DNA of 64,000 bases. It comes from an uncultured Pseudomonadota bacterium (GTDB taxonomy: Bacteria > Babelota > Babeliae > Babelales > CAIQNR01). Shown here in pieces: positions 29,221 through 52,603 of the stretch (within the stretch, counting starts at the first letter, position 1; each line of letters opens with the position of its first letter). The stretch spans positions 104,156 through 168,155 of the forward strand of contig CAZRXF010000001.1 in the NCBI GenBank assembly GCA_964604015.1, in the 5' to 3' direction. Both the position numbers and the translations under genes were made by a program. The notes under the pieces are model-generated. The model was not told where the DNA came from. It made no database searches and saw nothing but the letters and a program-made list of their open reading frames with translations.

Positions 29221-30636
29221 TCAATAGGATCGAGCGACAATACAATCTGTTTTACTTGGTTTTTGGCAGACGCCACAGACAGAACATTGTTTTTCCTGTA
29301 GCAGGCAACGAACAGAGAGCTTATGGTTTTTCAGCTCAGCTTCACAGGAGCGTTCGCCACAGAACCCAGTTTGTATGAAATTCCATTCAGAAGCGGTGAT
29401 AATTGCATCAAGGTTATGCTGTACCACTTTCATGGTTTCAAGTCGTTTTTTTGCGCGTTCAAAAAGTTCTGTTTGAAGGGTGTTGAGTTTTTCAAAAATT
29501 ATACGACCAATTCCTTGCAAAGGTGTGGGGGTTTTTATCGAACTAATGCGGTCGGTCATAATAACTTGGTCTTGTGCCAGATCGCGAGGCCCTATTTCCA
29601 GGCGAAGTGGTACCCCTTTCAATTCCCAATGATAAAATTTATTTCCCGGTGTTTTTTGGTCATCTTCGTCAATATGCACTCGTACTTTGTCGTGGAGTTC
29701 ATCTTTGATTTTTTGAGCAGCTAAAAGTACTTCTTCTCGCTCAGTTTCCGTTTTGTAAATAGGAATGATGACTACTTGGATTGGTGCGATACGGGGAGGA
29801 AGCACGAGCCCTTTGATATCACCGTGACTCATGATAAGTGCACCGACAAGACGGGTTGTGGTTCCCCAGCTGGTGAGCCATGGGTAGGCAAGATCACCCT
29901 CTTTTGTCTGGAACTTCATTTCAAACGCATGCGCAAAACTTTGTGAAAGCAAGTGAGAGGTTCCCATCTGGAGTGCCTTACCGTCCGGCATAAATCCTTC
30001 AAAGGTGTACGTGGTTACAGCACCTGGGAACTTTTCCCCTTCTGACTTTTTACCGGTAATCACGGGAATCGCGAGGTAATTTTCAGCAAGATCTTTGTAG
30101 ATACTGAGCATCATCAGGACTTCATCGAGCGCCTCTTTTTCCGTTGCGTGAGCGGTGTGCCCTTCTTGCCAAAAGAACTCAGATGTTCGTAAAAATGCGC
30201 GTGGTCTCATTTCCCAACGGACCACGTTGGCCCATTGGTTAATCAAAAGAGGCAAATCGCGGTAGGAACGTATCCATTGAGCAAACATGTGATGAATAAT
30301 CGTCTCTGATGTTGGACGTACGACCAATGGTTCGGCAAGTTGCTTTCCCCCTGCGTGGGTTACTACCGCAAGCTCAGGTGCAAAGCCTTCAACGTGCTCA
30401 GCTTCTTTTTTCAGGAATGATTCAGGAATTAAAAGCGGGAACATCGCATTTTTATGCCCCGTGTCTTTAATTTTTTTATCAAGAACTCCCTTTATCGTCT
30501 CCCAAATCTCACACCCATAGGGGCGGATTACCATGCATCCTCGTACGGGGGCATTATCAGCCAATTCTGCTTGGTGAATTACCTCTTGATACCATTCGGC
30601 AAGGTTTGTTTTTGGATCTGGGAGTCTGTTGCTCAT
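29221..30636 (-). CDS. proS: Proline--tRNA ligase, archaeal/eukaryotic-like type
   Basis: 471 aa. The N-terminus is LAEWYQEVIHQAELADNAPVRGCMVIRPYGCEIWE. It has class II motifs (RPTSETIIHHMF, FLRTSEFFWQEGHTAH), no bacterial-type INS editing insertion, and a C-terminal Cys-rich domain ending in ...ARSY. Confidence 0.9.
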   Translation of the reverse strand: MSNRLPDPKTNLAEWYQEVIHQAELADNAPVRGCMVIRPYGCEIWETIKGVLDKKIKDTGHKNAMFPLLIPESFLKKEAEHVEGFAPELAVVTHAGGKQLAEPLVVRPTSETIIHHMFAQWIRSYRDLPLLINQWANVVRWEMRPRAFLRTSEFFWQEGHTAHATEKEALDEVLMMLSIYKDLAENYLAIPVITGKKSEGEKFPGAVTTYTFEGFMPDGKALQMGTSHLLSQSFAHAFEMKFQTKEGDLAYPWLTSWGTTTRLVGALIMSHGDIKGLVLPPRIAPIQVVIIPIYKTETEREEVLLAAQKIKDELHDKVRVHIDEDDQKTPGNKFYHWELKGVPLRLEIGPRDLAQDQVIMTDRISSIKTPTPLQGIGRIIFEKLNTLQTELFERAKKRLETMKVVQHNLDAIITASEWNFIQTGFCGERSCEAELKNHKLSVRCLLQEKQCSVCGVCQKPSKTDCIVARSY

Positions 30637-30806
30637 GAGAGTCCTTATGTTAAGCGTTTAGTTTTACTGGTCTGTCAGTATACGGACCCTGCAGGTTTTT
30701 GTAAAAAAGAGCTTACGTAAAGGCCTGTAGATTGCGTATTTGCTGTACTGTGCTACGCTTTGGCGGCAAAAACGTAAGACACCATAACGAAAGTGAGAAA
30801 GTGCAC

Positions 30807-31472
30807 ATGCCTGAATCCATGGCTGATACAAAAACAACACTCTCTGATATGAAAAAGATGGTCGATGACTTTCTTATAGAACGTGACTGGTACCAGTTTC
30901 ACAACCCAAAAACTGACAGTGTTGGCTTAGTTATTGAAGCAGGAGAGCTTCTGACGCCTTTTCTTTTTGCAAAACCTGGTATGGGTGGTCGTGATATTCT
31001 TGCTTGCAAAAAAACTGAAGTGGGTGATGAGTTAAGCGATGTTTTTGTATGGCTTTTCTGTATCGCTCTCGTTAACAAATTTAGCCTTACCAGATTACTT
31101 TGTTCGGCTTTTCCTGGTTCTTCGTTTGATGAAGATAAGACAACGCTGGAAAATCTTAAAAAGATTGTTTCTCGTGAATACCGCGGATATGGAACGCCAG
31201 AAAGAGCAGTTCGTGCTATTGTTGTGGCGGCGACTGCTTATTTTGAGCTCTTTTTAAAACAGTCGCAGGATGATCTTGGGTATGATGTCATTGAGAACCA
31301 TCGTAATGCTAGTGAGCATGTGTACGTACAAGTTTTTTTGGCTGCTCTACATTTTGCAATAGAAGCAGATCTTGATCTTTCACATGTTTTTCAAACAAAA
31401 ATGGAAAAAAACAGGGAAAAATATCCTGTTGAAAAATCTAAGGGCACATCATTGAAATATAATGAATTATAA
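30807..31472 (+). CDS. MazG-like nucleoside triphosphate pyrophosphohydrolase, apparently a tandem (two-core) form
   Basis: The first core is LSDMKKMVDDFLIERDWYQFHNPKTDSVGLVIEAGELL...GDELSDVFVWLFCIA. The second, more degenerate core ends in FQTKMEKNREKYPV, the typical C-terminal KxxKNxxKYP. Start is at 30807 (or 30819); the track start at 30732 adds an unlikely extension. Confidence 0.65.
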   Translation: MPESMADTKTTLSDMKKMVDDFLIERDWYQFHNPKTDSVGLVIEAGELLTPFLFAKPGMGGRDILACKKTEVGDELSDVFVWLFCIALVNKFSLTRLLCSAFPGSSFDEDKTTLENLKKIVSREYRGYGTPERAVRAIVVAATAYFELFLKQSQDDLGYDVIENHRNASEHVYVQVFLAALHFAIEADLDLSHVFQTKMEKNREKYPVEKSKGTSLKYNEL

Positions 31473-31484
31473 AAGGAACTTGTT

Positions 31485-32411
31485 ATGAAAAAAATGAAAA
31501 AACTAAGTGCTTGTTTTGTAGCACTGTCTCTTGTGTCAACACCCCTTCGCCCTGTTGATCCTCGCGATATTTTGCGTGATATTGCTTACGGTAGCGCTGT
31601 TATCGCAATTGCTGCTGGAGTTATCTATCTTGGTATAAATGCCCCTGATTATTGTCCTGAATGTGGTTTGAAAATTGAAAAGGATGATCCGCACTATACG
31701 TTCTGCAATAAGTGGCTCCATAAACATCATCCTTACTGCTATGCCAAAGCTAATGGTCAGTGTAAAGCTTGTGAGGTTCATGCGAAATACGTTGCTGAAC
31801 ATGAAAGAAAAAAAACAGAGGCACAACAGATAGCCGATGATCACGCGCTAGCCCAAGAAATGGCTCAACAGGAAAGCAGTGGTGCTCGCGGAGGTGGTTA
31901 TGTATCTCCTGGTCAGGCAAATAAGGATCAGTGTGAAGTTCATGGCGAACGATTTGCAGGACGCGATGCAACACATGAGAGTGCCCGCGCTTATGGATCA
32001 ACCACCCCTACTCAGACAACGAATCGCCAAACCGATGCACATGGTAGTTATTATGCTCAAAAAGTTGATCAACAACAGCGGCAAACTGGTGTACAGAACA
32101 GAACAACTTCGGGCGGAAAAGGGTCTGCCGAGCACGCCTTTACGCAAGAGGAAATGCAAGAAGATTGCCAGATATGTTACACCGGTAAATTATGTGAATT
32201 AGATAATGGAACTGCTGTTAATCTTAATGATTCCCGCTACAAGAACCATGTTTCCAAGATTCCGTGCAGATGCAACAATGGCAAAGGCCGTTGGTTTCAT
32301 ACTGCTTGCTTGAAACAGTGGGCAAAAACTTGCCGAAGCAAAAACCAGAATCCTCGTTGCCCCCTTTGTAAGGATCAATTTAACGAGAAAAATGTATTCA
32401 AAAACAGCTAG
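31485..32411 (+). CDS. Membrane-anchored protein with two RING-type zinc fingers (RING-H2-like + C4HC3 RING-CH)
   Basis: It has a signal/anchor MKKMKKLSACFVALSLVS and a TM segment GSAVIAIAAGVIYLGI. Finger 1 (31653-31772) is CPEC-x13-C-x4-H-x2-H-x2-C-x7-CKAC. Finger 2 (32166-32375) is CQIC-x29-CRC-x8-H-x2-C-x19-CPLC with the WFHTACLKQW context typical of RING-CH (MARCH-type) domains. Confidence 0.7.
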   Translation: MKKMKKLSACFVALSLVSTPLRPVDPRDILRDIAYGSAVIAIAAGVIYLGINAPDYCPECGLKIEKDDPHYTFCNKWLHKHHPYCYAKANGQCKACEVHAKYVAEHERKKTEAQQIADDHALAQEMAQQESSGARGGGYVSPGQANKDQCEVHGERFAGRDATHESARAYGSTTPTQTTNRQTDAHGSYYAQKVDQQQRQTGVQNRTTSGGKGSAEHAFTQEEMQEDCQICYTGKLCELDNGTAVNLNDSRYKNHVSKIPCRCNNGKGRWFHTACLKQWAKTCRSKNQNPRCPLCKDQFNEKNVFKNS

Positions 32412-32445: not shown

Positions 32446-33045
32446 ATGTTGCAGTATCTGTATAAAAATTGGGCTCATATGTGCGGTGTCATGGCCCTCT
32501 ATCTGACCATCCTATTGGTTAGTGTCTTTCATTGTCTTGATCCATACGTTTTTCTCGTGTGGCTTCAGTTTCCGGTGTATCTGATACACGAATTTGAAGA
32601 ACATGCATGGCCCGGCGGATTTAAGCAGTTTATTAATAAAAACATCTTCGGTATTCAGGGCGTGGATCAACCACTCACTGATGCGCGTGTATTCTGGATT
32701 AATATTTTAGGCGTCTGGGTTCTTTTCCCCGTTGTGGCTCTTGCTACACAATGGATTAATCCGTTGTATGGGTTGTTGGCGCCCTGCTTTGGGCTTTTTA
32801 ATGCATCGTTACATATCGTGTGGGCAATCGGATTAAGACGGTATAATCCTGGTCTTCTTGCAAGTGTTTTCCTGAATTATCCAACAGGTATCTACACTAT
32901 CTTCGTCGCTCATAACATGGGCTATTTTTCAGTACCTGCGCTCCTTGGAGCTTCCGTTTTTGCTTTCGTTAGTCACGTCATAATTTTCTTGGCTGTCTTA
33001 CATTGGTATCGAGAGTACGCAAAAAGAGGTCAGATTTCTGACTAA
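32446..33045 (+). CDS. HXXEE-motif polytopic membrane protein
   Basis: 199 aa with about 6 hydrophobic segments. The motif is LIHEFEEHAWPGGF (H-x-x-E-E), as in the HXXEE domain family. Confidence 0.6.
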   Translation: MLQYLYKNWAHMCGVMALYLTILLVSVFHCLDPYVFLVWLQFPVYLIHEFEEHAWPGGFKQFINKNIFGIQGVDQPLTDARVFWINILGVWVLFPVVALATQWINPLYGLLAPCFGLFNASLHIVWAIGLRRYNPGLLASVFLNYPTGIYTIFVAHNMGYFSVPALLGASVFAFVSHVIIFLAVLHWYREYAKRGQISD

Positions 33046-33860
33046 TTATGTATGGGTGTTCTACCAATTTGAATGAGACCATTTTTAAAGCGAACCACCT
33101 GGTACCGAGCAGTTCTTTTTCCCTCTTTTTGATCATCGAAATAGCCGGGGTCGTCTCCTATCACATCGACAGCACTTGAAAGTGAATCACCGTTTATTGC
33201 TTTCTCCAGGCGGTCAATGATTGGTGCCAGCTCTTCAACTGAGGGAATAATGCCCATAGCCAGTCTTCCTCTCACATTTGAGAGGTAATCAGATATATGG
33301 TTGCGTCGTCTCACAAGATCTGCAAGCAGTAAATCGAATCCCTTTTTATTTCCTGCGTAAGCATTCTTCTTTGTCCTGACCGCTTCTATCATCTCTTGCA
33401 AGTATGTCGTATAGGTTCTTTCCACTGCATAGAATCTGTGAAGTGCTTGAACCGTCCTGTCATGTTGAAGGTTTGTGTGGAGTTGGAGTGCACTATCTTC
33501 GGTTGCGCGTGGGTGTTCGTTCGCCAGTGTTTTTATGGCTTTTTTAGCAGATGGAGAAAGGTCTACCTGTTTGGTAAGTGAGGTAGTAGCGGGTTCTGAA
33601 AGTACTATCGAAGGACTAATCCTGTCTGTTTGTAGAGGAACAGATTTACGTGGACTTAAAAGATCATCTGATATGCCACGAATTTCTTCAGTATCCCCAA
33701 TGATTTCGAATGGGTGATCAACATGTTTTTGCTCACGATCACGGACTACTACATCATCGTCAGCTCGAAGAACATCGATTGATTCCAGCGTGGCTTCTAC
33801 TGGTGCGTACAAAAGGGATGTAAAACAGAAACAATAAAAACCCAACCTCAAAATCTTCAT
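33042..33860 (-). CDS. Secreted hypothetical protein
   Basis: I moved the start to the ATG at 33860, preceded by GGAGGTGG. This gives MKILRLGFYCFCFTSLLYAPVEA (signal peptide). Its stop overlaps the convergent gene by 4 nt. No recognised domain. Confidence 0.6.
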   Translation of the reverse strand: MKILRLGFYCFCFTSLLYAPVEATLESIDVLRADDDVVVRDREQKHVDHPFEIIGDTEEIRGISDDLLSPRKSVPLQTDRISPSIVLSEPATTSLTKQVDLSPSAKKAIKTLANEHPRATEDSALQLHTNLQHDRTVQALHRFYAVERTYTTYLQEMIEAVRTKKNAYAGNKKGFDLLLADLVRRRNHISDYLSNVRGRLAMGIIPSVEELAPIIDRLEKAINGDSLSSAVDVIGDDPGYFDDQKEGKRTARYQVVRFKNGLIQIGRTPIHN

Positions 33861-34039
33861 AACCACCTCCATTTTTATATGGTCACTATTAGAATAGCGC
33901 CTATGGACTATGAAAATCAACAAATTAAGCGTGCAACAATCGACCTGTCGCGTTTTTTCGAAGAATTAAGCCTTAAAGTGTCCAGTAGAAAGGTAATGTC
34001 GCTGAAAAATTCTATAGAAACTAAGACAGCAAGGTACGC

Positions 34040-34420
34040 TTATCTCGCTGCCGGCATTTGTTCACGAGCTCGTTTCAAGGCAGCTTGTGCTTGTTTCAGT
34101 TGTTCCTGAACTCGGGTAAGTTCCTGTTGAGCTTTTTCCTTTTCTTCTCGTGCAGCGTGTGCCTTTTGTTCTGCTTGTTTTGCACGAGCTTCTTGCATCT
34201 TTATTTTCAGACGAGCCGCTGTCGAAGCAAGAAATTCTTTGGCAACTTCCGCTCCTTCATGCATGCTGCGCTTTACCGTTTGCGCGGTATCGGTGACGAT
34301 ATCTTTCACGGTAATCGCGACGACTTCAGCTTTTTCTGAAAATTTTTCTTGATGAGCTTCTTCTGCACGGCTTTGGGTTGTCAATGCAAGCAAAAGTGTT
34401 GCGATGATCTTTTTTTTCAT
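34040..34420 (-). CDS. Small secreted coiled-coil protein
   Basis: 126 aa with the signal peptide MKKKIIATLLLALTTQSRA. The remainder is Ala/Glu/Lys/Gln-rich helical sequence. Confidence 0.55.
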   Translation of the reverse strand: MKKKIIATLLLALTTQSRAEEAHQEKFSEKAEVVAITVKDIVTDTAQTVKRSMHEGAEVAKEFLASTAARLKIKMQEARAKQAEQKAHAAREEKEKAQQELTRVQEQLKQAQAALKRAREQMPAAR

Positions 34421-34430
34421 AGATACCCTT

Positions 34431-35336
34431 TCATTTTTGGTGTGCGATAATCTCTTCTTTCAGTTCTTCTTGGTAGAAGATGTAGAGCCCTACTCCGACT
34501 AACAGAGCAGTTACGTAGAACCAAGGACTTACTTCTTCTCGCAACCAGAACCAGCCAAAAAGTGCGGCAAAAAGTGGCGTAGTGCATCCGAAGAACGAAA
34601 GTGTGGTGGCAGAATACCGGTGAAGAAGCTTGCCGTAAAGGTTGTAGCAAATAATGTTACCGATGAGGATCAAAAGCAAGAGTGATCGCAGGAATGTGGT
34701 ACTTGCGCACAATGTGGGTACCGAGGGCCACACTTCAAAAAAATAAGAAGTGGCCAGCGAAAGAAGGCCGCCTAAGAACATTCCCACCCCATTTACAAAC
34801 ACATAGGAATGATCATGAAGGCTGATAAGGCGCTTCATAAAGATCCATCCAATGCATGATGCGGTAACGGAAAGAACCAATAGAAATTCCGCGTAGGACG
34901 AGTGAGTTGTTGATTCCGTTGCTCCCGGAGCTGTCAGTAAAACGGGGATAAATGCGAGAAAACCTATCAAAAGTCCAACCCATTTTTTTGCAGATAACAC
35001 TTCTCGGAAGAAAAAGTAGGAAAGCAGTGCAGTGATGAAGGGGGTGAGGTTGTAAAGGAGGGAAACCTTTGCACCAGTCAGGTACTGTAGACTGATGAAT
35101 TCGAGCGCGTACGAGCCATAAATATGAAAAAGAACAATTCCCACAAACCAAAAAAGATCTTTTTTATGAAACTTGAATGATTCTTTACGAAAGAGTCTAA
35201 CAAAGCCAAGCAGCAAGATACCGGCCAGCACCATTCGCACCCCAATAAAAAAGAGTGGTGGAACTGCTAGAACGGCCTCCCTTCCGATGATGAACGTGCT
35301 TGCAAAAAATGCATACAAAATGAGTAAAAGTACCAT
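34431..35336 (-). CDS. EamA/DMT-superfamily transporter (copy 3 of a tandem triplet)
   Basis: 301 aa with 10 hydrophobic segments in a 5+5 arrangement. It is closely alignable with the adjacent copy (FVGIVLFHIYGSYALEF, LHRYSATTLSFFGCTTPLFAALFGW). Confidence 0.8.
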   Translation of the reverse strand: MVLLLILYAFFASTFIIGREAVLAVPPLFFIGVRMVLAGILLLGFVRLFRKESFKFHKKDLFWFVGIVLFHIYGSYALEFISLQYLTGAKVSLLYNLTPFITALLSYFFFREVLSAKKWVGLLIGFLAFIPVLLTAPGATESTTHSSYAEFLLVLSVTASCIGWIFMKRLISLHDHSYVFVNGVGMFLGGLLSLATSYFFEVWPSVPTLCASTTFLRSLLLLILIGNIICYNLYGKLLHRYSATTLSFFGCTTPLFAALFGWFWLREEVSPWFYVTALLVGVGLYIFYQEELKEEIIAHQK

Positions 35337-35361
35337 GAAAAGATTCCTTTTTTAGGGGGTA

Positions 35362-36303
35362 TTATCGCTCTAAGTCCTTCAGTTGTTCTTGTACCACTTC
35401 AGAGGTTGTAATGGTTCCTGCAAGCTCTTCTTGGTAAAACAAATAGAGACCAAATGACGTTGCAACTACCGTGGCAATAAAGAGTGGACCAACTGCTTTG
35501 CCGAGCCAGAGCCAATCAATAAGAGCGGCAAAAAGCGGTGTGCTGCAGTTAAAAAGTGAAAGTGTGGTTGCAGAATAGCGATGAAGAAGTTTTCCCCAGA
35601 GGTTGTAGACGATTACGTTACCAATTAACACGCTGCTTAAAAGAAGCATCCAGAACAATGATCCATGAAGAATGGACGATGCGGGGCATGGTTCACTGAC
35701 ATATGAAGTTGCAAAAGACAAAAGGCCACCAAAGAACATCCCGAACCCATTAACAAAGACGTAGGAATAGCCCCACTGAGTGGTAATTTTTTTTAGGAAA
35801 ATCCATCCAATACAGGTTGCAAGTACCGAAAGCACCAGTGAAAGCTGTGCAAAGCCAATTTGTGTCGTGGTTCCTCCGATAGAAATTGAAGTGAATTTTG
35901 ACACGATCATAGGAATTGATGCCACCGATCCGATAACAAGACCAAGCCATTTTTTACGTGTCATGAGCTCTTGCAAAAAGAAGAAGGCAAAAAGTGCGGT
36001 GATAAAAGGAGAAAGGTTATACATCAGGGCAACGTAGGCGCCAGAGAGGTATTTGTAACTATAAAACTCAAGAACGTATGAGAAATAGATGTGGAAAATC
36101 ACGATACCGACAAACCACCACGCATGCTCTTTTTTAATAGTAAGCTTTTCTCGCTTAATAAATGCGACATAGCCTAGGAGCAGAAGACCGGCAAGGGTCA
36201 TACGAGCCCCTACAAAAAAGACGGGCGGCACAAGCGCCACCGCTTTTTCGCCTAAAATGAAGGTGCTTGCAAAAAGTGCATACAGCGTGAGGAGTAATAC
36301 CAT
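35362..36303 (-). CDS. EamA/DMT-superfamily transporter (copy 2)
   Basis: 313 aa. It has the same architecture and many identical blocks with copy 3 (MVLLLTLYALFASTFILG, FVGIVIFHIYFSYVLEF, LHRYSATTLSLFNCSTPLFAALIDW). Confidence 0.8.
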   Translation of the reverse strand: MVLLLTLYALFASTFILGEKAVALVPPVFFVGARMTLAGLLLLGYVAFIKREKLTIKKEHAWWFVGIVIFHIYFSYVLEFYSYKYLSGAYVALMYNLSPFITALFAFFFLQELMTRKKWLGLVIGSVASIPMIVSKFTSISIGGTTTQIGFAQLSLVLSVLATCIGWIFLKKITTQWGYSYVFVNGFGMFFGGLLSFATSYVSEPCPASSILHGSLFWMLLLSSVLIGNVIVYNLWGKLLHRYSATTLSLFNCSTPLFAALIDWLWLGKAVGPLFIATVVATSFGLYLFYQEELAGTITTSEVVQEQLKDLER

Positions 36304-36312
36304 AAAAATTCC

Positions 36313-37221
36313 TTAATGAATGAGACCTTCTCTTTTTTCTTCGTGATAAAAAAGAGCAAAAGCTACGGCAAGAGTAATAACTGAGAATAAAAACGTATAA
36401 CCAATCGGTTGATCATAGAGAAAGAACCCAAGAACAGCGGTGGTAAGAGGGGTAACTAATGTGGCAAATGATACCAGCGTTACGGGATATTTCTTAACCA
36501 AATAACCGTACAATGGTTGGGAAATAAGATTATGAGTAATAAAAAGAAAGAGAATGAGTGGAGCTACTACAGAAACGTTGGTAACAGGGAATGGATTCCA
36601 AGATTCAAAGAAGAGTGACACTAGTCCAGAAGCTACCCCCCCAAAAAAGAGAGCCGTTCCCAAGCACCAGATGACTGGATATTTTTCTTGAGTGACAAGC
36701 CGTTTGAAGAAAAAAGTGCCGATGACCACAGAAAGAACGCACACAAACATTGCGGCATACCCACCTGCAAGTTGCATGCTACTTGCGCCGTTGTTTGAAA
36801 CACGTGTGGCAAGAATGTTCTGGATGATCAGAGGAAGTACCCCGACAAAGCCGAGACATAAAGCGCCCAGCTTTTTGAGGGTAAAGGATTCTTTAAAAAC
36901 AAGATTTGAAAGCAGTGCAGTAACAAAGGGAGTAAGCGCACTCAGTAACGCCGCGTGCGAAGCTGGGATTTGTGTGAGCCCTACAAAACGAAAGGCGTCC
37001 ATAAGAAAGTAAAAGAAGGCGACTCCGGCAAAAAGTGGAACAGCCTTTGCGCGAAATGTAATGTTTTTACGATGTAAGACAAAAGATAAGCTCATGAAGA
37101 TAAGACCAGCGGGAACAAGGCGTACAGCGGTAAGAAAGAATGGTGCAGTGTGCATGAGTGCTCTTTTTCCAATAGTGAACACACTTGCTAAGAGGACATA
37201 CATACAAATGAGATCTATCAC
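36313..37221 (-). CDS. EamA/DMT-superfamily transporter (copy 1, more divergent)
   Basis: 302 aa with 10 hydrophobic segments. It shows EamA-type repeats (LLSALTPFVTALLSNLVFKE..., YPVTLVSFATLVTPLTTAVLGFFLY). Confidence 0.75.
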   Translation of the reverse strand: MIDLICMYVLLASVFTIGKRALMHTAPFFLTAVRLVPAGLIFMSLSFVLHRKNITFRAKAVPLFAGVAFFYFLMDAFRFVGLTQIPASHAALLSALTPFVTALLSNLVFKESFTLKKLGALCLGFVGVLPLIIQNILATRVSNNGASSMQLAGGYAAMFVCVLSVVIGTFFFKRLVTQEKYPVIWCLGTALFFGGVASGLVSLFFESWNPFPVTNVSVVAPLILFLFITHNLISQPLYGYLVKKYPVTLVSFATLVTPLTTAVLGFFLYDQPIGYTFLFSVITLAVAFALFYHEEKREGLIH

Positions 37222-37289: not shown

Positions 37290-38096
37290 CTACAGCGGAT
37301 CATTATCAACAACGTACACCGGTTCGATGGATAACGCTTTTCCTGTGGCTGTGTCAGCGGTGATAACTGCTCCACTCAAGACATAGGGAGCGTCAGTTGC
37401 ACCCTGATATCGTGTTGGCATCTGGGTAAGAAAGCGATTCAAGAATCCTTCTTTTGTTGCGCCAATCATAGAATTGAGAGATCCTGCCATCCCAAGGTCG
37501 CTGATATAGGCAGTTCCGTTAGGAAGTATTCGTGCATCGGCTGTTTGTACATGTGTGTGGGTTCCTACGACCGCCGTTACTTTCCCATCAAGGTACGCTG
37601 CTAAAGCAACTTTTTCGGCATTCGTTTCTGCATGAAAATCAACAAACATGAGCGGAGTAACTTTTTTTGCTTCTTCAAGAAGATCGAGTGCTTTTTGAAA
37701 GGGACAGTTAATCTGTACGGGCATAAAAAGGCGTCCCATCAGGTTCATGACCCCGACAGTAACTCCTTTGCAGGAAAAAAATGTCATGCCTTTTCCGGGG
37801 CATGCATCAGGGTAGTTTGCCGGTCTGAGGATAGTTTCTGATTGATTGAGATACTCAAAAATATCTTTCTTATCAAAGATGTGATTGCCCGAGGTGATGA
37901 CTGTAACACCGTGATTGTGCAAAAATTGTGCGATTGCAGGAGTGATTCCTTTTCCATCAGCGCAGTTTTCTCCATTGATGATGATTGCATCAAGTTGGTA
38001 TTCAGAGCGTAGGTGTTCGACATGACGTGCAAAAAGATCTCTTCCTGGTCTGCCTACCAGATCTCCTAGCAGCAAAACACGTATGACACTGCTCAT
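37290..38096 (-). CDS. ymdB: YmdB-like metallophosphoesterase (2',3'-cyclic-nucleotide phosphodiesterase family), copy 2
   Basis: 268 aa. Blocks present: VLLLGDLVGRPGR, IINGENCADGKGIT, VITSGNH, VDFHAETNAEK and GTHTHVQTADARILPNGTAYISDLGMAG. Its start overlaps the upstream stop as ATGA (38093-38096). Confidence 0.8.
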   Translation of the reverse strand: MSSVIRVLLLGDLVGRPGRDLFARHVEHLRSEYQLDAIIINGENCADGKGITPAIAQFLHNHGVTVITSGNHIFDKKDIFEYLNQSETILRPANYPDACPGKGMTFFSCKGVTVGVMNLMGRLFMPVQINCPFQKALDLLEEAKKVTPLMFVDFHAETNAEKVALAAYLDGKVTAVVGTHTHVQTADARILPNGTAYISDLGMAGSLNSMIGATKEGFLNRFLTQMPTRYQGATDAPYVLSGAVITADTATGKALSIEPVYVVDNDPL

Positions 38097-38914
38097 GAGA
38101 GGTCCCCCAATTGTTCTGCATCTGTTTTTATAAAAGGTTCGATGGCAAGTGCCTTACCGGTTACTGGATCGACCGTGATGATTGCTCCTGTCATGTGGTA
38201 AGGTGCTGTGACTACTACTTCGCCGTGATGTGGCATTCGCGTGACAAATCCTTGGACAAACGGTTCTAGTTCAAAACCAATAAGAGAGTGAGTTGAGCCT
38301 GACATACCAAGGTCAGTGATATATGCTGTTCCACCAGGTAAAATTCGCGCATCACTGGTAAGCGTATGGGTGTGCGTTCCAACAACAGCGGTTACTTTCC
38401 CTTCTAAAAAGTACGCGAGACCCAATTTTTCTGAAGTAGCTTCTGCATGAAAGTCGACAAACATGATGGGGGTAATGGCAGCGCTTTCTTTGAGCAGCTT
38501 TTCTGCTTCGTAAAAAGGACAATCAAGGACAGGATCCATGAAGACGCGACCCATGAGATTCATGACTCCGATGGTGTATCCCTTACAGGAAAAAAAGGTC
38601 ATCCCCTTACCAGGACAAGAAGCGGGAAAATTTGCAGGGCGAATAACGTCTGTATGTGCATCAAGGTACGGAAAAATGCTTTTTTCATCCCAGCTGTGGT
38701 TACCACCAGTGACGATATCTGCTCCGTTCTTTCTTAAAAACAAGGCGTCTTCGGGGGTGATGCCGCATCCTGAATCGGTGCTGTTTTCTCCGTTTACTAT
38801 GATTGCATCAACAGCATGATCGGCTCTGATTGCGGTACTGTGACGGGCAAAAAGAGCTCTACCCGTCCTACCAATCAGATCACCAAGCATCAGTACGCGT
38901 AGCACCTGACTCAT
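38093..38914 (-). CDS. ymdB: YmdB-like metallophosphoesterase, copy 1
   Basis: 273 aa with the same motif set (VLMLGDLIGRTGR, IVNGEN, VTGGNH, VDFHAEATSEK, GTHTHTLTSDARILPGGTAYITDLGMSG). It starts 12 nt downstream of the rny stop. Confidence 0.8.
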   Translation of the reverse strand: MSQVLRVLMLGDLIGRTGRALFARHSTAIRADHAVDAIIVNGENSTDSGCGITPEDALFLRKNGADIVTGGNHSWDEKSIFPYLDAHTDVIRPANFPASCPGKGMTFFSCKGYTIGVMNLMGRVFMDPVLDCPFYEAEKLLKESAAITPIMFVDFHAEATSEKLGLAYFLEGKVTAVVGTHTHTLTSDARILPGGTAYITDLGMSGSTHSLIGFELEPFVQGFVTRMPHHGEVVVTAPYHMTGAIITVDPVTGKALAIEPFIKTDAEQLGDLS

Positions 38915-38926
38915 AAGCTCTCCTTT

Positions 38927-40486
38927 TTATCGAGCGTATTCAATCGAACGTTTTTCTCGGATAACGTTAACTTTAATTTGTCCGGGGAAAGACATTTCGT
39001 CTTCAATGCGTTTTGCAATGTCACGCGCCAAGATTCCTGCTTTTTCATCGTCAAGAAGGTCCTCCTCAACAATGACGCGGACTTCCCTACCTGCTTGCAA
39101 CGCATAGGCTTTTTTAACTCCGCCAAAGCTATTTGCAATGTCTTCGAGTTTTTCAAGCCGTTTGATGTATGCAGTGAGTGTTTCTCTACGTGCACCAGGA
39201 CGTGATGCTGAGATGGTATCGGCAATCACTACAATCGGGGCATAAATAGAAAGGAAGGGAACTTCTTCATGGTGAGCCGCAATTGCGTTTACCACAAGAG
39301 GGCTTTCTCCACAGCGTTTTGCAATATCGCCACCGATGATAGCATGCGGTCCTTCAACCTCTGCAGTTACGGCTTTTCCAATATCATGTAAAAGACCAGC
39401 GCGCATTGCTATTTCACCGTTTAGACCGAGTTCTTCTGCAATCATACGGGCAAACATACCGACTTCTTTACTGTGATCGAGGACATTTTGAGAGAATGAT
39501 GTTCTAAAATAGAGCTTACCCAGCAAGGTTACGATTTCAGGGTGAATGCCTTGGATATTGCATTCAAGGATTGCCTGCTTTCCGTATTCTTCAATTGCTT
39601 CTTCGATTTCTTTTTCGTAGTAAGCAACCGTTTCTTCAATACGTGTTGGATTGATACGACCATCAAGAATCAATTTTTCAAGGGTACGGCGCGCTATTTC
39701 TCGTCGTATCGGGTTAAAGCCAGAAATGGTAATTACTTCCGGTGTTTCACCAATAACAAATTCCATCCCCGTTGCCATTTCAAGCGACTTGATGTTGCGC
39801 CCTTCTTTTCCAATGATGCGCCCTTTCATTTCTTCCTTTGGAAGGTGCACTACACTGGATGCGTTCGGCGTTACTTGATCGATGGTGTAGCGCTGCATGG
39901 CGCTTACGACGATTTGTATAGATTTTTCTTTTGCCGTTTGACGTGTTTCTTCTTCAACCTTTTGGATCCATTTTTGATTAGAAAGATTCACTTCAGCGTA
40001 TAAGATATCGGCAAGTTCTTTCTTTGCTTGGTCTTTGCTCAAGCCACCGATATTTTCCAGCTTGGTGATCAGCTCTGTGTAGAGTGATTTGAGCTTTTCC
40101 TCATTTGAGTGCATAAGCTCGCTCATTCGATTGAGCTTGCGCTCTTTCTCCTGGAGTTCTCGCTTGAGATCATCAAGTTGCTCTTCTTTTTTATCGAGCG
40201 TGTCTTCTTTGGATTGGATCTTTGATTGTTGGCGATCGAGTTCAATGCGATCACGCTTAATCTCAGCTTCAAACTCAGTGCGTCGTTTATAAATCTCGTC
40301 TTTGACTTTTAAAAGCGCTTCTTTTCGTTCCGTTTCTATTTCTCGTTTTGCACTTCTGTGCTTTTCTTCGACGGAAGCCAGCAACGCATTCGCATCCGCC
40401 AATTTTTTCTTGGCGTACATGAGCATTACCAGGGCTAGTGCAATCCCCACAAGCCCAAGAAGAACTTCACCTATTCCTAATAACAT
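38927..40486 (-). CDS. rny: Ribonuclease Y
   Basis: 519 aa. It has an N-terminal TM anchor (LLGLVGIALALVMLMY), a long coiled coil, a KH domain (GRIIGKEGRNIKSLE) and an HD domain (GLLHDIGKA). Confidence 0.92.
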   Translation of the reverse strand: MLLGIGEVLLGLVGIALALVMLMYAKKKLADANALLASVEEKHRSAKREIETERKEALLKVKDEIYKRRTEFEAEIKRDRIELDRQQSKIQSKEDTLDKKEEQLDDLKRELQEKERKLNRMSELMHSNEEKLKSLYTELITKLENIGGLSKDQAKKELADILYAEVNLSNQKWIQKVEEETRQTAKEKSIQIVVSAMQRYTIDQVTPNASSVVHLPKEEMKGRIIGKEGRNIKSLEMATGMEFVIGETPEVITISGFNPIRREIARRTLEKLILDGRINPTRIEETVAYYEKEIEEAIEEYGKQAILECNIQGIHPEIVTLLGKLYFRTSFSQNVLDHSKEVGMFARMIAEELGLNGEIAMRAGLLHDIGKAVTAEVEGPHAIIGGDIAKRCGESPLVVNAIAAHHEEVPFLSIYAPIVVIADTISASRPGARRETLTAYIKRLEKLEDIANSFGGVKKAYALQAGREVRVIVEEDLLDDEKAGILARDIAKRIEDEMSFPGQIKVNVIREKRSIEYAR

Positions 40487-47218: not shown

Positions 47219-48781
47219 TTACAAAAATCCTACTCCACCATAAGAGGAGGTAAAGGTAGTCGGGGTGAAAGGATTGATATAACGAAGAGTGAGAAAGTCT
47301 CCTGCTGTAGGAGCTCCTCCAAATCCGGCGTCTATGTTAGTTTGTCCTACAACTACAATGTCCCCGCTTGGTGTGAGTGCGACTGCATGTCCAGCATCGC
47401 TCAGAGGTGGTCTTGAGATGTGAGTGATAGTGTATCCAGTTCCATTTGGTCCATATGAGGAATCAAGTCTTCCTTCTGATGTGTAGCGCAAAATAAGGAT
47501 AGAACTTCCCACTCCACCAACACCCCAGATATTTGTAGAGCCGGCTACTACAATGGAATTATCAAGTTGGAGCGTTACGCTGTAGGCACCATCAACGTAC
47601 CCTATTCCGGATATATTCGTTGTTACAATGCCATTTTGTCCAAATGCATGATCAATGGTGCCGTCTGAATTGTAACGTACCAAGCCAACATAACCAATAA
47701 CGGGTCCTCCCCCCTGATCAATATTGACTACCCCTGCTGCTATGATTTTTCCATCAGGTTGTAATACTCCAGCAAAAGCTTCATCTATGTAACCAACAAC
47801 ATTGGGTGAAATGTGTGTTGTAACGATTCCTGTTTGACTTGGTCCAAAAGTCTTATCAAGATGGCCGTCTTGAGAAAAGCGCATAATCAGAAACGAACCA
47901 ATAGCTATTCCTCTTGCTGTTACATTAGTTCCACCGATAGCAATAATTTTACCATCAGGTTGGAGAAGAAGTGCTTGAATGGAGTCAACTTGTCCTACCC
48001 CTGAGATATTTATGGAAAAAGTGCCATCCCCATTGGGACCAAAATTGTTGTCTGGTGTACCATCTGAATTATATCGAATTAAGGTAGCATCGCCTGTTCC
48101 CAAACCTCCCTGATAGATGTTTGTGAAACCACCAACTAAAATCTTCCCATCAGGCTGAATAACGACACTTGTTGCTCCGTCAATGCGTCCAGAAAAATTT
48201 TTGGTGACTATTCCATTTTTGCTTGGTCCAAATGAAGTATCAAAAGAACCATCAGAGTTGTAACGTACTACACCAAAATATCCAATGTTAGGAGCGGCAT
48301 CGTAAATGTTGGTTGATCCTACAACCACGATTTTCCCATTGGACTGTATTGCTACACCATTGGCACCATCAATGTAACCGGCGCCACTAAGGCTTGTTGT
48401 AACATAGCCAAGGTTATTACCAAAAGAATGATCAAGAGTGCCGTCAGTGTTGTATCGCAGTGTAGCAAAAAGTCCGGTAGGTGGAGGGCCACCAGCACCG
48501 TTAATATTCAGTTCTCCTACTGTTACAATTTTCCCATCTGATTGTAGTGCTAATGCATAGCAACCATCCGCCTTGCCAGAGATATTGAGTGTTGCATACC
48601 CAATGCCATTAAATGTGTGGTCAAGAAGACCTGCAAGGTTAATCGCTTGTACATAACTTGCAAAAACCGCAGGCGGAGTCTCTGGGGTGATTCTAACCAT
48701 AGCACTGAGGCGTAAGAAGCTTATTGTTAACAGAATGACCAATGAAAAAATGGAAGTTAGTGTGTTTTTTTTCTTTTTCAC
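47219..48781 (-). CDS. Secreted delta-60-type repeat (beta-propeller) protein, copy 2
   Basis: The GTG start at 48781 is preceded by GAGGA with a 6-nt spacer. The signal/anchor is KKKKNTLTSIFSLVILLTISFL. At least six ~55-60-aa repeats carry the core (L/V)RYN(S/T)DG(S/T)xDxxFG...DGKI(V/I)(V/A)(V/G)G. Confidence 0.75.
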   Translation of the reverse strand: MKKKKNTLTSIFSLVILLTISFLRLSAMVRITPETPPAVFASYVQAINLAGLLDHTFNGIGYATLNISGKADGCYALALQSDGKIVTVGELNINGAGGPPPTGLFATLRYNTDGTLDHSFGNNLGYVTTSLSGAGYIDGANGVAIQSNGKIVVVGSTNIYDAAPNIGYFGVVRYNSDGSFDTSFGPSKNGIVTKNFSGRIDGATSVVIQPDGKILVGGFTNIYQGGLGTGDATLIRYNSDGTPDNNFGPNGDGTFSINISGVGQVDSIQALLLQPDGKIIAIGGTNVTARGIAIGSFLIMRFSQDGHLDKTFGPSQTGIVTTHISPNVVGYIDEAFAGVLQPDGKIIAAGVVNIDQGGGPVIGYVGLVRYNSDGTIDHAFGQNGIVTTNISGIGYVDGAYSVTLQLDNSIVVAGSTNIWGVGGVGSSILILRYTSEGRLDSSYGPNGTGYTITHISRPPLSDAGHAVALTPSGDIVVVGQTNIDAGFGGAPTAGDFLTLRYINPFTPTTFTSSYGGVGFL

Positions 48782-48794
48782 GAGGAATCCTCTT

Positions 48795-50354
48795 TTATAA
48801 GAACCCTACTCCACCATAAGAGGAGGTAAAGGTAGCCGGGGTGAAAGGATTGATGTAACGAAGCGTGGTAAAGTCCCCTTCTGCAGGAGCGCCCCCTGCT
48901 CCTGCTCCTACGTTCGTTTGCCCAGCAACTAGAATGCTGCCATTTGCGGCAAGAGTAACACCATAACCGGCATCATAAAGAGGGGGATTTGAAATTTGCG
49001 TGGTAACATACCCAATTCCTTGTGGGCCAAATGAAGGATCAAGAGTCCCCTCTGGGGTATAGCGCAAAACAAGAATTGATCCAGGAGCTCCAGCAGTTCC
49101 TCTTTCATTTGTGGCACCTGCGACGACGATAAAGGCATCTAATTGAAGAACTGCTGCATTTGCATAATCAAGGTAACCGTTACCAGAAATATTTGTCGTT
49201 ACAATTCCACCCTGCCCAAACGAGGCGTCGAGAGTGCCATTCGAAGTATAGCGCACCAAACATACATCTCCGATTGGTATTCCTGTGCCTTGGGTGTTGG
49301 TTGATCCTACTGCCACAATTTTTCCATCGGGTTGGAGGACCCCTGAAGCTGCGCCATCAGCATATCCAACGGTGTTTGATGAGATGTGTGTCTGTACAAT
49401 GCCTGTTTTGTCTGGTCCGAATGTTGAGTCAAGAATGCCTTCTTGAGTAAGCCTCATGACAAGAAAGGAACCAGTTCCTCCTGCCCCTGATATATTAGTT
49501 GCTCCGATGGCAATAATTTTTCTGTCAGGTTGTAAGAGAACGCTGTTTGCAATATCGGTCTTATTGTTACCCGAAATGCTTACAGAGAAAGCTCCATTAC
49601 CGTCAGGTCCAAAACTATCATCTTCCGAGCCATCTGCATTGTATCGAAGAAGTGCAGCCTTTCCTTGTCCGCCTACTAGTGCAAAGGCAAGAATGTTTGT
49701 AAATCCTCCAAGTAAAATTTTACCGTCAGGTTGAATGACAACACTGGTCGCTCCATCTACATTACCTGAGAGGTTCCTTGTGACCGTTCCGTTCTGAGCA
49801 GGTCCAAAGGTGGCGTCAGGGGATCCGTCGGGATTATACCGTACGATGGCAAATGATCCTACGGGGGGAAAACCGTTAAGTCCACGATTTGTTTGTCCTG
49901 CGACAACAAGTTTGCCATCTGATTGGATAGCAATAGCAGTGGCAAAATCGGCAGTACCAGGTCCACTAAAACTTGTTGTAACGTATCCAAGTCCATTTCC
50001 AAATGAGGGATCTAGAGAACCATCAGTGTTGTAGCGGGCGGTGAGGAAGACGCCTGTTCTTCCTCCTCCAATATTGAGATTTGTTCCTCCAACAACGACT
50101 ACTTTGCCATCAGATTGAACTGCGATCCCGTGTGCCCTATCAGCAAATCTATCAATGTTCAGGGTTGCATACCCAATACCATGAAAGGTGTGGTCAAGAA
50201 GGCCTGTAAGATTGATTGCTTGGACGTAACTTGCAAAGACTGCAGGTTGAGTTTCTGGGGTTATCCTAACCATAGCGTTGAGGTGTGAGAACTTTATTGT
50301 TAGCACAATGGCTAGGGAAAAAATAAGGACAAATACATGCTTTTTCTTGTTCAC
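48795..50354 (-). CDS. Secreted delta-60-type repeat (beta-propeller) protein, copy 1
   Basis: I moved the start to the GTG at 50354, preceded by AAAGGAGA with a 7-nt spacer. This gives NKKKHVFVLIFSLAIVLTIKF, parallel to the paralog. The repeat core is the same. The N-terminal ~45 aa after the signal and the last 20 aa are nearly identical to copy 2. Confidence 0.75.
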   Translation of the reverse strand: MNKKKHVFVLIFSLAIVLTIKFSHLNAMVRITPETQPAVFASYVQAINLTGLLDHTFHGIGYATLNIDRFADRAHGIAVQSDGKVVVVGGTNLNIGGGRTGVFLTARYNTDGSLDPSFGNGLGYVTTSFSGPGTADFATAIAIQSDGKLVVAGQTNRGLNGFPPVGSFAIVRYNPDGSPDATFGPAQNGTVTRNLSGNVDGATSVVIQPDGKILLGGFTNILAFALVGGQGKAALLRYNADGSEDDSFGPDGNGAFSVSISGNNKTDIANSVLLQPDRKIIAIGATNISGAGGTGSFLVMRLTQEGILDSTFGPDKTGIVQTHISSNTVGYADGAASGVLQPDGKIVAVGSTNTQGTGIPIGDVCLVRYTSNGTLDASFGQGGIVTTNISGNGYLDYANAAVLQLDAFIVVAGATNERGTAGAPGSILVLRYTPEGTLDPSFGPQGIGYVTTQISNPPLYDAGYGVTLAANGSILVAGQTNVGAGAGGAPAEGDFTTLRYINPFTPATFTSSYGGVGFL

Positions 50355-50418
50355 TAGAAGGTCTCCTTTTAAAGACAAACAGTTTCAACCGTAGTAAAAA
50401 GAGCTGGTATTTTTCAAT

Positions 50419-51238: not shown

Positions 51239-52603
51239 ATGCAAAAAGATGTCCGTAGCCTAGCAAATAGCGCTGAGCCGGGTAAACAGACTGAAGAATA
51301 TTTTTTTAAAAATTATAAGGAAAAGTTCTTTCGGGCGGTGAAATGGAACGTCGTTGAATCGATTGGCTATCAAGTAATTTTTATGCTTCATCAGTGTGGA
51401 CTTTTTTGGTATTGCGATCGAAGTTTGTATGGGAAAATAGGAGCACTTCTTGCTGCCTGTTACTTGGGGGTAACCGTTCTTGTGGCAGGATTTGATGGAG
51501 GACTTCTTCCTTTTTTTGAACGGTTTACTGCAACAAAACAGGATTTTAAAAAATTTATTTTTGGCAAACTTGTGCCACACCTGTGCCTTATGGTCGGGAC
51601 CGTTGGTCTGATCGGCATCATTTTTTTTATAAGCGGTCGAACTTTTTTTTCTTTTTCAGGATGGTCACTCTTTCTTGTGGGGCTGTTTGTTCTGGTTGAA
51701 GCAACCAAGAAAATTTTGAAGCAATTGTTGTATCTTGGTTTTCATAATAAACAGACTGCCCTTTTTGAGGTCCTTCAGATCGGACTCTACTCAGGAACCG
51801 TATGGGGTTGTTACATGGCGGGCATTCCGTTTTCGATACCACTTTTTATGATTCCATTTATTGTGTGGTCAACCGTGTTTTGTTTTTTATGTGTGTGTAT
51901 CTTAAAAGTTTATTATCGGACACTTCCTTTTGCGCATACGACCTCTCTTCCTCTTATCTCTTTGTCATTTATATTTCTTAGAGGCGCTGTCCTTATTAAT
52001 CAGTTAAGTCGGGCATTTTTTTCCAGCAATTTCCTAGTTCCCCTTTTTGCAATTCATGGTGGGTTTAGAGAAGCAGGTGTTTTAACCTTCGCAAATTATC
52101 TGACACATGCTTGCACCTTTTTCATTCAAAAGATAACTCTTCCTCCTGCAGAGGCATTATTTAGCAGAATAAAAAAACTTTCACTTGTTGCTCATCATAA
52201 AGCTTTTTCATTAGTCCTTACCCTTTTTTCATCACTTACACTTGTGTTCGGATTTTTATTTTTTTTCAAGGGACGCTCATTAGCAACTTCGTTCGGATAT
52301 AGCGTACTGGACCATGTTACCTGGAAGCTTCTTATTTTCTTTTTCTTTATTCACCTGCTTGAAAGTATCTTCATGTTGTATGAAAAATTCTTTCTTTTGC
52401 AAGAGCAGATCATGTTTCTTGCTCTTGGTAACGTAATCACATGCGTCATTTGCTATCTTCTTTTCCTCCTGAAGTTACCATTTTTTGTTCTTGTTTTTAC
52501 CTGCATTTTTATGAGATTTTCCTTCTTTATCTTCCTCTCGCTCCGCATCTACTCTTCAAAATTGGCATCTGGAGCCTCTTTTCAAGGGCGGTTGCAACGA
52601 TAG
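51239..52603 (+). CDS. Polytopic membrane protein, MOP-flippase-like (Wzx/MurJ-type), copy 1
   Basis: 454 aa with about 12-14 hydrophobic segments. It aligns by eye with the ORF at 53329 (e.g. SRAFFSSNFLVPLFAIHGG...LPPAEALFSRI against SLSERNFLFPFITSIQGQ...TIGIADTALLSYV). The family call is tentative. Confidence 0.45.
   Translation: MQKDVRSLANSAEPGKQTEEYFFKNYKEKFFRAVKWNVVESIGYQVIFMLHQCGLFWYCDRSLYGKIGALLAACYLGVTVLVAGFDGGLLPFFERFTATKQDFKKFIFGKLVPHLCLMVGTVGLIGIIFFISGRTFFSFSGWSLFLVGLFVLVEATKKILKQLLYLGFHNKQTALFEVLQIGLYSGTVWGCYMAGIPFSIPLFMIPFIVWSTVFCFLCVCILKVYYRTLPFAHTTSLPLISLSFIFLRGAVLINQLSRAFFSSNFLVPLFAIHGGFREAGVLTFANYLTHACTFFIQKITLPPAEALFSRIKKLSLVAHHKAFSLVLTLFSSLTLVFGFLFFFKGRSLATSFGYSVLDHVTWKLLIFFFFIHLLESIFMLYEKFFLLQEQIMFLALGNVITCVICYLLFLLKLPFFVLVFTCIFMRFSFFIFLSLRIYSSKLASGASFQGRLQR

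Follow-up and report, generated by a model that had tools for sequence, protein, structure and literature searches.

A candidate membrane-tethered RING ubiquitin ligase with an additional RING-like finger, encoded beside prolyl-tRNA synthetase in a Dependentiae-like bacterial chromosome

This study analyzed a gene located at positions 31485-32411 on the plus strand of a 64-kb stretch of bacterial DNA (the whole stretch of 64,000 nucleotides is referred to as the window), the product of which carries two clusters of putative zinc ligands behind an N-terminal membrane anchor. On the basis of its sequence and predicted structure, we propose, at roughly even chances, that the gene encodes a lineage-specific, fast-evolving, membrane-tethered RING ubiquitin ligase (E3), most likely one directed at a host. 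The parts of the open reading frame (ORF) are, in order, a leader, a transmembrane (TM) helix, finger 1, a conserved helical linker, a Gln/Thr-rich insert, and the C-terminal RING (finger 2), as follows:

31485..32411, plus strand: complete ORF of 308 amino acids from the ORF list, with a product identical to database protein P0001
31485..31547, plus strand: Sec-type leader, residues 1-21, comprising MKKMKK, a hydrophobic core of approximately 12 residues, and STP..RP.D, a pattern kept in 10 family members
31581..31640, plus strand: single Gly/Ala-rich TM helix, residues 33-52, approximately 19 residues, from hydropathy; the predicted model shows a helix at residues 26-52
31653..31772, plus strand: finger 1, residues 57-96, a RING-H2-like C3H2C3 cluster close to the membrane, in which the second loop is short, from a pattern match
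31836..31988, plus strand: conserved linker core, residues 118-168, with A-x3-A-x-(E/Q)-E-S occurring twice, approximately 35 residues apart, and flanking GGYVSPxQAxxDQ
31992..32129, plus strand: Gln/Thr-rich low-complexity insert, residues 170-215, present only in P0001-P0003, with a predicted local distance difference test score (pLDDT) of about 47-56
32166..32369, plus strand: finger 2, residues 228-295, a RING domain with a first loop of x29, from Pfam, PDB profile, AlphaFold2 (AF2), Foldseek, and substitution-rate analyses

A Shine-Dalgarno-like AAAGGA precedes the ATG of the ORF. The 16 candidate Cys and His ligands form two eight-ligand clusters; all 16 are invariant in the sister protein P0002 (61-63% identical), and the ligand columns are conserved in the alignment of 11 family members. 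When the residues of the protein were shuffled 20,000 times, a single RING-like pattern appeared in 0.24% of the shuffles and the double pattern in none. The two-finger pattern is therefore more than a product of chance. The ratio of nonsynonymous to synonymous substitution rates (dN/dS), determined against the orthologue in genome L001, was 0.167 for the whole gene, 0.086 for finger 2, and 0.30 for the leader and TM region. These values show purifying selection on the gene.

Few homologues were recovered. A search of 5.8 billion clusters returned the window protein itself and one relative, an exhaustive hidden Markov model (HMM) search of 1.84 billion representatives returned six family proteins, and a profile search of 90% clusters extended the family to 11, the next match being a plant RING-H2 protein (E 7e-5). 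The members share a basic N-terminus with a core of approximately 12 residues and STP..RP.D, a Gly/Ala-rich TM helix, finger 1, a charged helical linker, and finger 2. Across the family, finger 1 begins 2-5 residues past the TM helix, and P0003 contains the module of TM helix and finger 1 twice. The orthologues in genomes L035 (GCA_040384165.1), L036, and L037 adjoin a divergently transcribed prolyl-tRNA synthetase (ProRS) gene, with EamA transporter genes further on, and the family members are positional orthologues beside ProRS in Dependentiae-like genomes. The gene is absent from L002, the closest genome in GTDB. An insertion specific to the window lineage, suggested by this absence, was rejected, because L035, L036, and L037, which are equally close by ProRS, carry syntenic orthologues; L002 has thus lost the gene.

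We compared the divergence of the RING protein with that of its neighbours. Identity between the window and L035 and L037 was 87-88% for ProRS and 78-80% for EamA, 45% for the MazG-like protein (L035 only), and 29% for the RING protein. Tandem RING paralogues, which the database profile searches missed, were located directly downstream of the orthologue in L035 (9085-9864, plus strand) and L037 (9056-9826, plus strand); the 64-kb window has no second copy of the family gene. In leader, TM helix, finger 1, and linker, the tandem paralogues follow the family plan; their finger 2 reads C-x2-C...C-x3-H-x-C-H-x2-C...C-x4-C, with an H-x-C-H cluster and an unusual terminal C-x4-C dyad (CPIPSC). Ligand 4 is His, Asp, or Cys depending on the family member. 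The 29% identity beside that of ProRS, together with the tandem paralogues, suggests a small, fast-evolving family with effector-like turnover.

We further analyzed finger 2, the ligands of which are C228-x2-C231-x29-C261-x-C263-x8-H272-x2-C275-x16-C292-x2-C295. The preliminary description of this DNA had named the same ligands but placed x19 in the last spacer, where the sequence has x16, and ended the finger at 32375 rather than 32369. Among the 11 family members, nine matched the Pfam models zf-RING_2 (PF13639) and zf-rbx1 (PF12678), with a best E of 1.1e-8, and the precomputed Pfam annotation carries the same two models. The family profile matched 51 solved RING domains in the PDB at E up to 0.01, all of the RING-H2/HC type and none of them a RING-CH chain. 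The top matches were Hrd1 (5e-8) and gp78/AMFR (1e-7), followed by synoviolin, RNF126, Arkadia, and RNF38 (range 5e-8 to 1e-5). The alignment with Hrd1 spans the long first loop of Hrd1, and the family residues Ile after Cys1, Pro after Cys7, and Arg after Cys8 overlie the Hrd1 residues that contact the ubiquitin-conjugating enzyme (E2). In the window protein, the putative E2-contact positions are I230 (after Cys1), W279 in the central helix, P293 (after Cys7), and the basic K296 (after Cys8).

Structure prediction pointed to the same fold. The AF2 model built from the 11-sequence alignment assigned finger 2 a RING-like beta-beta-alpha topology at pLDDT 84-94; a model from a two-sequence alignment was of insufficient quality (pLDDT 43). 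The top Foldseek matches were RING fingers: among PDB entries a TRIM RING, Rad5, Slx1, and Cbl-b, and in BFVD the RINGs of giant viruses and poxviruses. PHD fingers have the spacing C-x(2-4)-C-x(4-5)-H; the C-x1-C-x8-H of finger 2 is unlike it, and no Pfam PHD model matched this finger. Finger 2 very probably has a RING fold, and the C-terminal domain is a genuine RING with RING-H2 ancestry.

The best profile matches to finger 2, Hrd1/synoviolin and gp78/AMFR (E 5e-8 to 8e-7), offer the closest comparison. In addition to the long first loop of yeast Hrd1 and the aligned Ile, Pro, and Arg, the likeness extends to a RING placed C-terminal to the membrane segments and facing the cytosol, an orientation that is known for Hrd1 and gp78 and proposed here for the window protein. 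However, Hrd1 and gp78 are polytopic proteins of the endoplasmic reticulum, whereas the window protein has one TM helix and a leader, carries Cys where ligand 4 would be His, and possesses in addition a RING-like finger nearer the N-terminus and a linker unrelated to theirs. The similarity is that of the RING alone.

The preliminary description had classified finger 2 as a RING-CH domain of the MARCH type. The C4HC3 order with C-x-C and the H-x2-C-L-x2-W motif were confirmed, and these features, together with membrane anchoring, are shared with the MARCH and K3/K5/MIR ligases. The RINGv model (PF12906), that of the class comprising MARCH, K3/MIR, and Doa10, scored 21.6 bits on finger 2 of the window protein, exactly its gathering score of 21.6, and it matched two of the 11 family members, the other being P0002 (7e-5). 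The best PDB match of the single sequence was likewise MARCH8/c-MIR (2d8s). These observations would suit a bacterial homologue of MARCH/K3-type RING-CH ligases gained from a eukaryote or a virus, a possibility that we consider very improbable. The MARCH8 match had an E of only 0.45, the RINGv alignment covered only profile positions 15-47 of 47, and a viral MARCH-like LAP was ranked 28th by Foldseek, with a poor fit. MARCH and K3 proteins begin with a cytosolic RING-CH, which is followed by two or more TM helices, and their RING-CH has a first loop of about x10-12 and x7 between ligands 4 and 5. By contrast, the window protein has a first loop of x29 and x8 between ligands 4 and 5, and its one TM helix, in the region of residues 1-52, precedes the RING at 228-295, the reverse of the MARCH order.

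The relatives of the window protein further argue against MARCH/K3 descent. Their finger 2 reads C-x(1-6)-H-x2-H-x2-C, with the first His replaced by Asp in two members. Finger 2 of the window protein is not C3H2C3, whereas the other nine members, which match the RING-H2 models, are C3H2C3 or, in the two members with Asp, C3DHC3. In the window protein and its sister, the position of the ligand-4 His is occupied by Gly or Arg, and a new Cys (Cys263) appears two residues past ligand 3. The ligands are reshuffled again in the tandem paralogues, making C4HC3 one of several derived states. Judged from this alignment, the C4HC3 arrangement of the window protein is a derived relocation of ligand 4, from His to Cys, inside a RING-H2 family, and its resemblance to MARCH is for this reason not evidence of MARCH/K3 descent.

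Finger 1 gave a different picture. Its pattern, C57-x2-C60-x13-C74-x4-H79-x2-H82-x2-C85-x7-C93-x2-C96, and its coordinates, 31653-31772, were exactly those described previously. C57, C60, H79, H82, C93, and C96 do not vary among 11-12 sequences; the relatives have the canonical C-x-H-x2-H-x2-[C/H], from which the window protein departs by a displaced ligand 3. The AF2 model again showed a beta-beta-alpha topology, but at a pLDDT of only 70-75. In Pfam, eight of 10 relatives gave sub-threshold RING matches, and the window protein gave zinc-ribbon knuckle matches only. The best match in the relatives was Prok-RING_1 (cutoff 29.1 bits), which scored 24.6 bits in P0006 (positions 4-53 of 54) and 20.8 in P0010; PHD matched one member at E 2.5. 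The PDB profile matches of finger 1 were weak (RNF4, EL5, Arkadia, and the Pygopus (Pygo) PHD, E 0.02-0.1), and stronger C2H2 matches were discarded as spurious, being caused by the repeated PYxCPxCG knuckle. Alignment of finger 1 with finger 2 by hhalign (probability 56%, E 1e-4, 26 columns) indicated a modest link.

Finger 1 has no hydrophobic residue between Cys1 and Cys2 (CPxC) and no Pro in the last dyad, and its second loop, at x6-7, leaves no room for a central helix bearing the E2-contact Trp. Because the E2-contact residues are absent and the second loop is short, we infer that finger 1 is not a catalytic RING. It is predicted to be a degenerate RING-like cross-brace module that is unlikely to be catalytic and probably does not bind E2. 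Thus, of the two RING-type fingers originally described, finger 2 is a RING, whereas finger 1 resembles one in ligand order and predicted topology but falls below every Pfam threshold.

The region between the fingers had been described as a Gln/Thr-rich linker. This holds for residues of about 170-215, an insertion confined to three members; residues 97-168, directly after finger 1, instead form a helical, charged, and conserved segment. The family consensus of the linker core is (E)EAQR(V/I)AQEES+xARGGY(V/T)xPxQAKxDQ..HG...A...A.EE(S/T), with A123, A127, S131, G136, Q144, Q149, and A158 invariant. Searches of the linker core against Pfam and PDB profiles returned nothing at E up to 10. What we take to be a loose resemblance of the linker motif to ubiquitin-interacting motifs (UIM) was not supported by these searches, and the UIM reading of the repeats was rejected; position -3 from the Ala in motif 1 is Gln rather than a hydrophobic residue.

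Hydropathy and insertion energies agreed with the earlier claim of a membrane-anchored protein with a signal or anchor followed by one TM helix: a basic start and a core of approximately 12 residues precede a Gly/Ala-rich segment of approximately 19 residues. The insertion energies are approximate. For the leader segment they were +6 to +12 kcal/mol as a 19-mer and about 0 for the 12-mer core, and the 19-mer values indicate that this segment is not a TM helix. The TM helix is marginally hydrophobic, with an approximate apparent free energy of insertion (dGapp) of +0.8 kcal/mol in the window protein and a family range of -0.3 to +1.8. A lipoprotein reading was also considered and rejected, because the lipobox-like LSAC (residues 7-10) lies N-terminal of the hydrophobic core and its Cys is absent in P0002.

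To place the protein in its biological setting, we examined the organism. The window is an ordinary bacterial chromosome; its housekeeping genes include FtsW, MurD, a class I aminoacyl-tRNA synthetase (tRNA-synt_1), L9, DnaB, RuvC, DnaN, RecF-like, XerD-like, ProRS, RNase Y, IF3, RecA, MiaA, CarD, and DnaK, with many orphan ORFs interspersed. The ProRS relatives with taxon labels were from Dependentiae, Babeliales, or TM6 (59-68% identity); closer metagenome-assembled genomes (MAGs), with ProRS identity up to 88%, had labels that were uninformative or read "Pseudomonadota." Several of the ProRS-related genomes share the synteny of ProRS and the EamA array. RNase Y and CarD in the window also argue against alpha-, beta-, or gamma-proteobacteria. 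We conclude with moderate confidence that the organism is a Dependentiae-like obligate associate of eukaryotes, probably dependent on amoebae or other protists. Because such a bacterium is of an obligately host-associated type, an effector reading of the RING gene is reasonable.

Several observations weigh against a host-directed ligase. By default, the bacterial topology expected from the sequence (a cleaved leader with a stop-transfer helix, or a hairpin) would place the C-terminal 255 residues, including both fingers, in the bacterial cytoplasm, which has no ubiquitin system. Dependentiae are not reported to have type III or type IV secretion systems (T3SS and T4SS), the exporters of known TM effectors, and passage of a protein with 17 Cys through the periplasm would be awkward. 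With regard to finger 2, the partial RINGv match omits the first CxxC, the window protein falls below the zf-RING_2 cutoff (16.0 vs 27.3 bits), and the assignment of Cys263 as ligand 4 is inferred from the alignment. The Foldseek probabilities were high, but the whole-chain E-values (0.015 and 0.005) were not significant, because the long helices dilute the whole-chain comparison. Finally, the Dependentiae assignment is based on one marker gene and synteny, and several close MAGs are labelled Pseudomonadota.

The topological points would be accommodated by a resident inner-membrane protein of the bacterium, with cytoplasmic fingers serving in scaffolding or in zinc or redox sensing and with no role in host ubiquitin. 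We regard this explanation as rather unlikely. The default topology that the leader and TM helix imply under the positive-inside rule agrees with it, as do the normally cytoplasmic location of Cys-rich zinc domains, the housekeeping genes around the locus, a possible co-transcription with the MazG-like and HXXEE genes, and the weak likeness of finger 1 in the relatives to Prok-RING_1, a prokaryotic RING family. However, finger 2 is a eukaryote-type RING-H2 that keeps the E2-contact residues, no E1, E2, ubiquitin-like (Ubl), or JAB genes lie nearby, and PADLOC gave no defence-system match for the RING gene or its neighbours. Moreover, the contrast in identity with ProRS, the tandem duplication, and the ligand turnover are atypical of a housekeeping membrane protein, the operon partners are not conserved family-wide, and the gene has disappeared from L002.

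The default cytoplasmic reading is further weakened by four points: the leader of a second RING protein in the window, the literature on signal peptides in Dependentiae, the moderate hydrophobicity of the TM helix, and the effector-like turnover of the gene. A protein with ankyrin repeats and a C-terminal RING (ANK-RING), encoded within the same 64 kb, also bears a Sec-type leader. In the Dependentiae isolate Chromulinavorax destructans, signal peptides are present on 44% of coding sequences and 78% of ankyrin proteins, and putative outer-membrane vesicles have been observed (PMC6561590, PMC4776705). TM6/Dependentiae genomes contain Sec and type II secretion system (T2SS) components, with two gspD copies, and reports related to secretion are limited to T2SS and type IV pili (PMC6561590, PMC4776705). 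The moderate hydrophobicity of the TM helix is compatible with escape from stop-transfer in the bacterial membrane.

In the host-directed ligase that we propose, the Sec-type leader would carry the RING protein out of the bacterial cytoplasm, and the Gly/Ala-rich helix would then anchor it in a host-facing membrane with both fingers cytosolic. The C-terminal RING would recruit the host E2~ubiquitin, and finger 1 and the conserved linker could serve in substrate binding or oligomerisation. A broader proposal, which we hold only tentatively and consider less probable than the ligase itself, is that the gene belongs to a private Dependentiae-like family of Sec-exported, single-pass ligases with two RING-like fingers, which evolve in an arms race and enter the membranes of host organelles or vacuoles without T3SS or T4SS, and in which a RING-H2 finger has been turned into a RING-CH-like C4HC3 finger by ligand relocation.

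Host direction without catalysis was also considered. The protein might be a catalytically inert RING-like adaptor that sequesters E2, binds ubiquitin, or dimerises with a host RING at the membrane. The lack of E2-contact residues in finger 1, the variable linchpin position after Cys8 (K, N, R, or G), and the changes of ligand 4 among members are in line with such an adaptor, as would be the presumed UIM-like linker motif, which the Pfam and PDB profiles did not support. However, finger 2 is the most constrained region of the protein (dN/dS 0.086), and the equivalents of I230, W279, and P293 are kept and align with Hrd1. An inert adaptor therefore appears unlikely.

We compared the proposed ligase with known bacterial systems. 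SneRING (SNE_A12920) of Simkania negevensis, characterised in 2025, shows that an intracellular bacterium can encode an active zinc RING E3, and knowledge of bacterial RING ligases is limited, according to the same paper (PMC12591485). SneRING, AvrPtoB, NleG, and LubX are eukaryote-like RING-fold E3s, and the likeness to this group lies in small, fast-evolving families, atypical zinc ligands, and association with host membranes (PMC12591485). No sequence relationship was detected; SneRING consists of an N-terminal RING and an alpha/beta domain and has no leader, TM helix, or second finger, and it belongs to another phylum, the Chlamydiae, which have T3SS.

Bacterial members of Prok-RING_1 (PF14446) are described as carrying TM helices. 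Among sub-threshold Pfam matches, this family scored best on finger 1 of the relatives, whereas finger 1 of the window protein gave no match to it, and the window gene differs in having no ubiquitin-like, E2, or JAB neighbours. The chlamydial Inc proteins and Salmonella SteD are TM effectors that resemble the window protein in having two hydrophobic segments at the N-terminus and a functional domain that faces, or here would face, the cytosol. SteD recruits host MARCH8, leading to membrane-localised ubiquitination of host proteins (PMC5104694). However, these effectors use T3SS, and SteD itself lacks a ligase domain, whereas the first segment here is a short Sec-type h-region. An Inc-type bilobed domain of two TM-length segments was not found, the first segment having a core of approximately 12 residues and a 19-mer dGapp of +6 to +12.

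The set of features that distinguishes the family comprises the Sec-type leader with a single TM anchor, two cross-brace fingers, a private linker, small size with synteny and fast evolution, and the ligand switch. A literature search found no description of RING ligases in Dependentiae/Babeliales and none of a bacterial RING-CH. Bacterially encoded zinc-binding RING ligases are few, and Dependentiae are a widespread and almost uncultured phylum of protist parasites. The family would add a membrane-tethered two-finger architecture to the bacterial RING ligases, and it would add candidate effector delivery by a Sec leader in a phylum without a known T3SS or T4SS. The turnover of ligand 4 (His, Asp, or Cys) among syntenic orthologues calls for caution in subtyping RING fingers by Cys/His order alone; the conversion of RING-H2 to a RING-CH-like finger, if true, would constitute a natural experiment in which the boundary between the two types is crossed within orthologues. 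With residues 215-308 as a short construct, one could ask which E2s of the host are used by such parasites.

The neighbouring genes and the second RING-type gene of the window are as follows:

29221..30636, minus strand: ProRS, the divergent synteny anchor, syntenic in relatives
30732..31472, plus strand: MazG-like gene upstream, 12-nt gap; Pfam MazG-like 29.6 bits; synteny in L001, L035, and L036; a neighbour in most relatives
32446..33045, plus strand: HXXEE membrane protein downstream, 34-nt gap; Pfam HXXEE 59 bits; a neighbour only in the window lineage and L001
20310..21425, minus strand: ANK-RING gene, with Sec-type leader MCKFVGAWKVMKILSLFSLCVCVSFGIQA, ankyrin repeats, and C-terminal RING-H2; Ank_2 56.9 bits, zf-RING_2 38.4 bits vs cutoff 27.3

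The zf-RING_2 score of the ANK-RING protein bears out the statement that the window contains a second RING-type gene. Its RING-H2 ligands are CAVC...CNHTFHGSSC...CPMC. The gene is flanked by a subtilase gene and recF and is absent from the syntenic subtilase/recF junction of L037. A recent paralogy with the gene at 31485-32411 was rejected; the shared match extends over just 28 residues (E 0.003).

Next to the RING gene, the MazG-like protein appears to be an internal tandem duplication, with residues ~29-112 and ~129-245 both aligning to single-domain homologues located upstream of ProRS elsewhere. The position of the HXXEE gene is occupied by the tandem RING paralogue in L035 and L037. Near ProRS in L035 (3088-3998, minus strand), two adjoining small genes match the eukaryote-type models zf-C2H2 and zf-H2C2_2, a further family of eukaryote-like domains in these bacteria. 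The interval from the HXXEE gene to the EamA array encodes two leader-bearing orphans, one of them of 293 amino acids without a Pfam match (33042-33923, minus strand); this interval is variable and contains other small orphan genes in L035 and L037. The second orphan, a coiled-coil protein of 126 amino acids (34040-34420, minus strand), is conserved in L001, L002, and L031. Three tandem EamA/DMT transporter paralogues follow (34431-37221, minus strand; up to four in relatives), and such transporter arrays fit a host-dependent lifestyle. Two tandem YmdB-like phosphoesterase paralogues lie at 37290-38914 (minus strand).

In the remainder of the window, which has no tRNA or Rfam features along its 64 kb, two tandem DUF5122 beta-propeller repeat proteins of 520 and 527 amino acids are encoded at 47219-50378 (minus strand). 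Two polytopic membrane proteins of 454 amino acids without a Pfam match (51239-52603 and 53329-54693, both plus strand) occupy the stretch of lowest GC content (0.39-0.41). The GC skew, positive over the first 38 kb or so, turns negative thereafter, with a cumulative peak at about 38 kb, and dnaN and recF lie at 21.8-24 kb; the switch at ~38000-40000 could be of the replication terminus/origin type or a rearrangement boundary. A giant ORF of at least 2157 amino acids (57525-63998, minus strand) reaches the edge of the window; it has no Pfam domain and a weak dynein coiled-coil match, and its product may be a large surface or effector protein.

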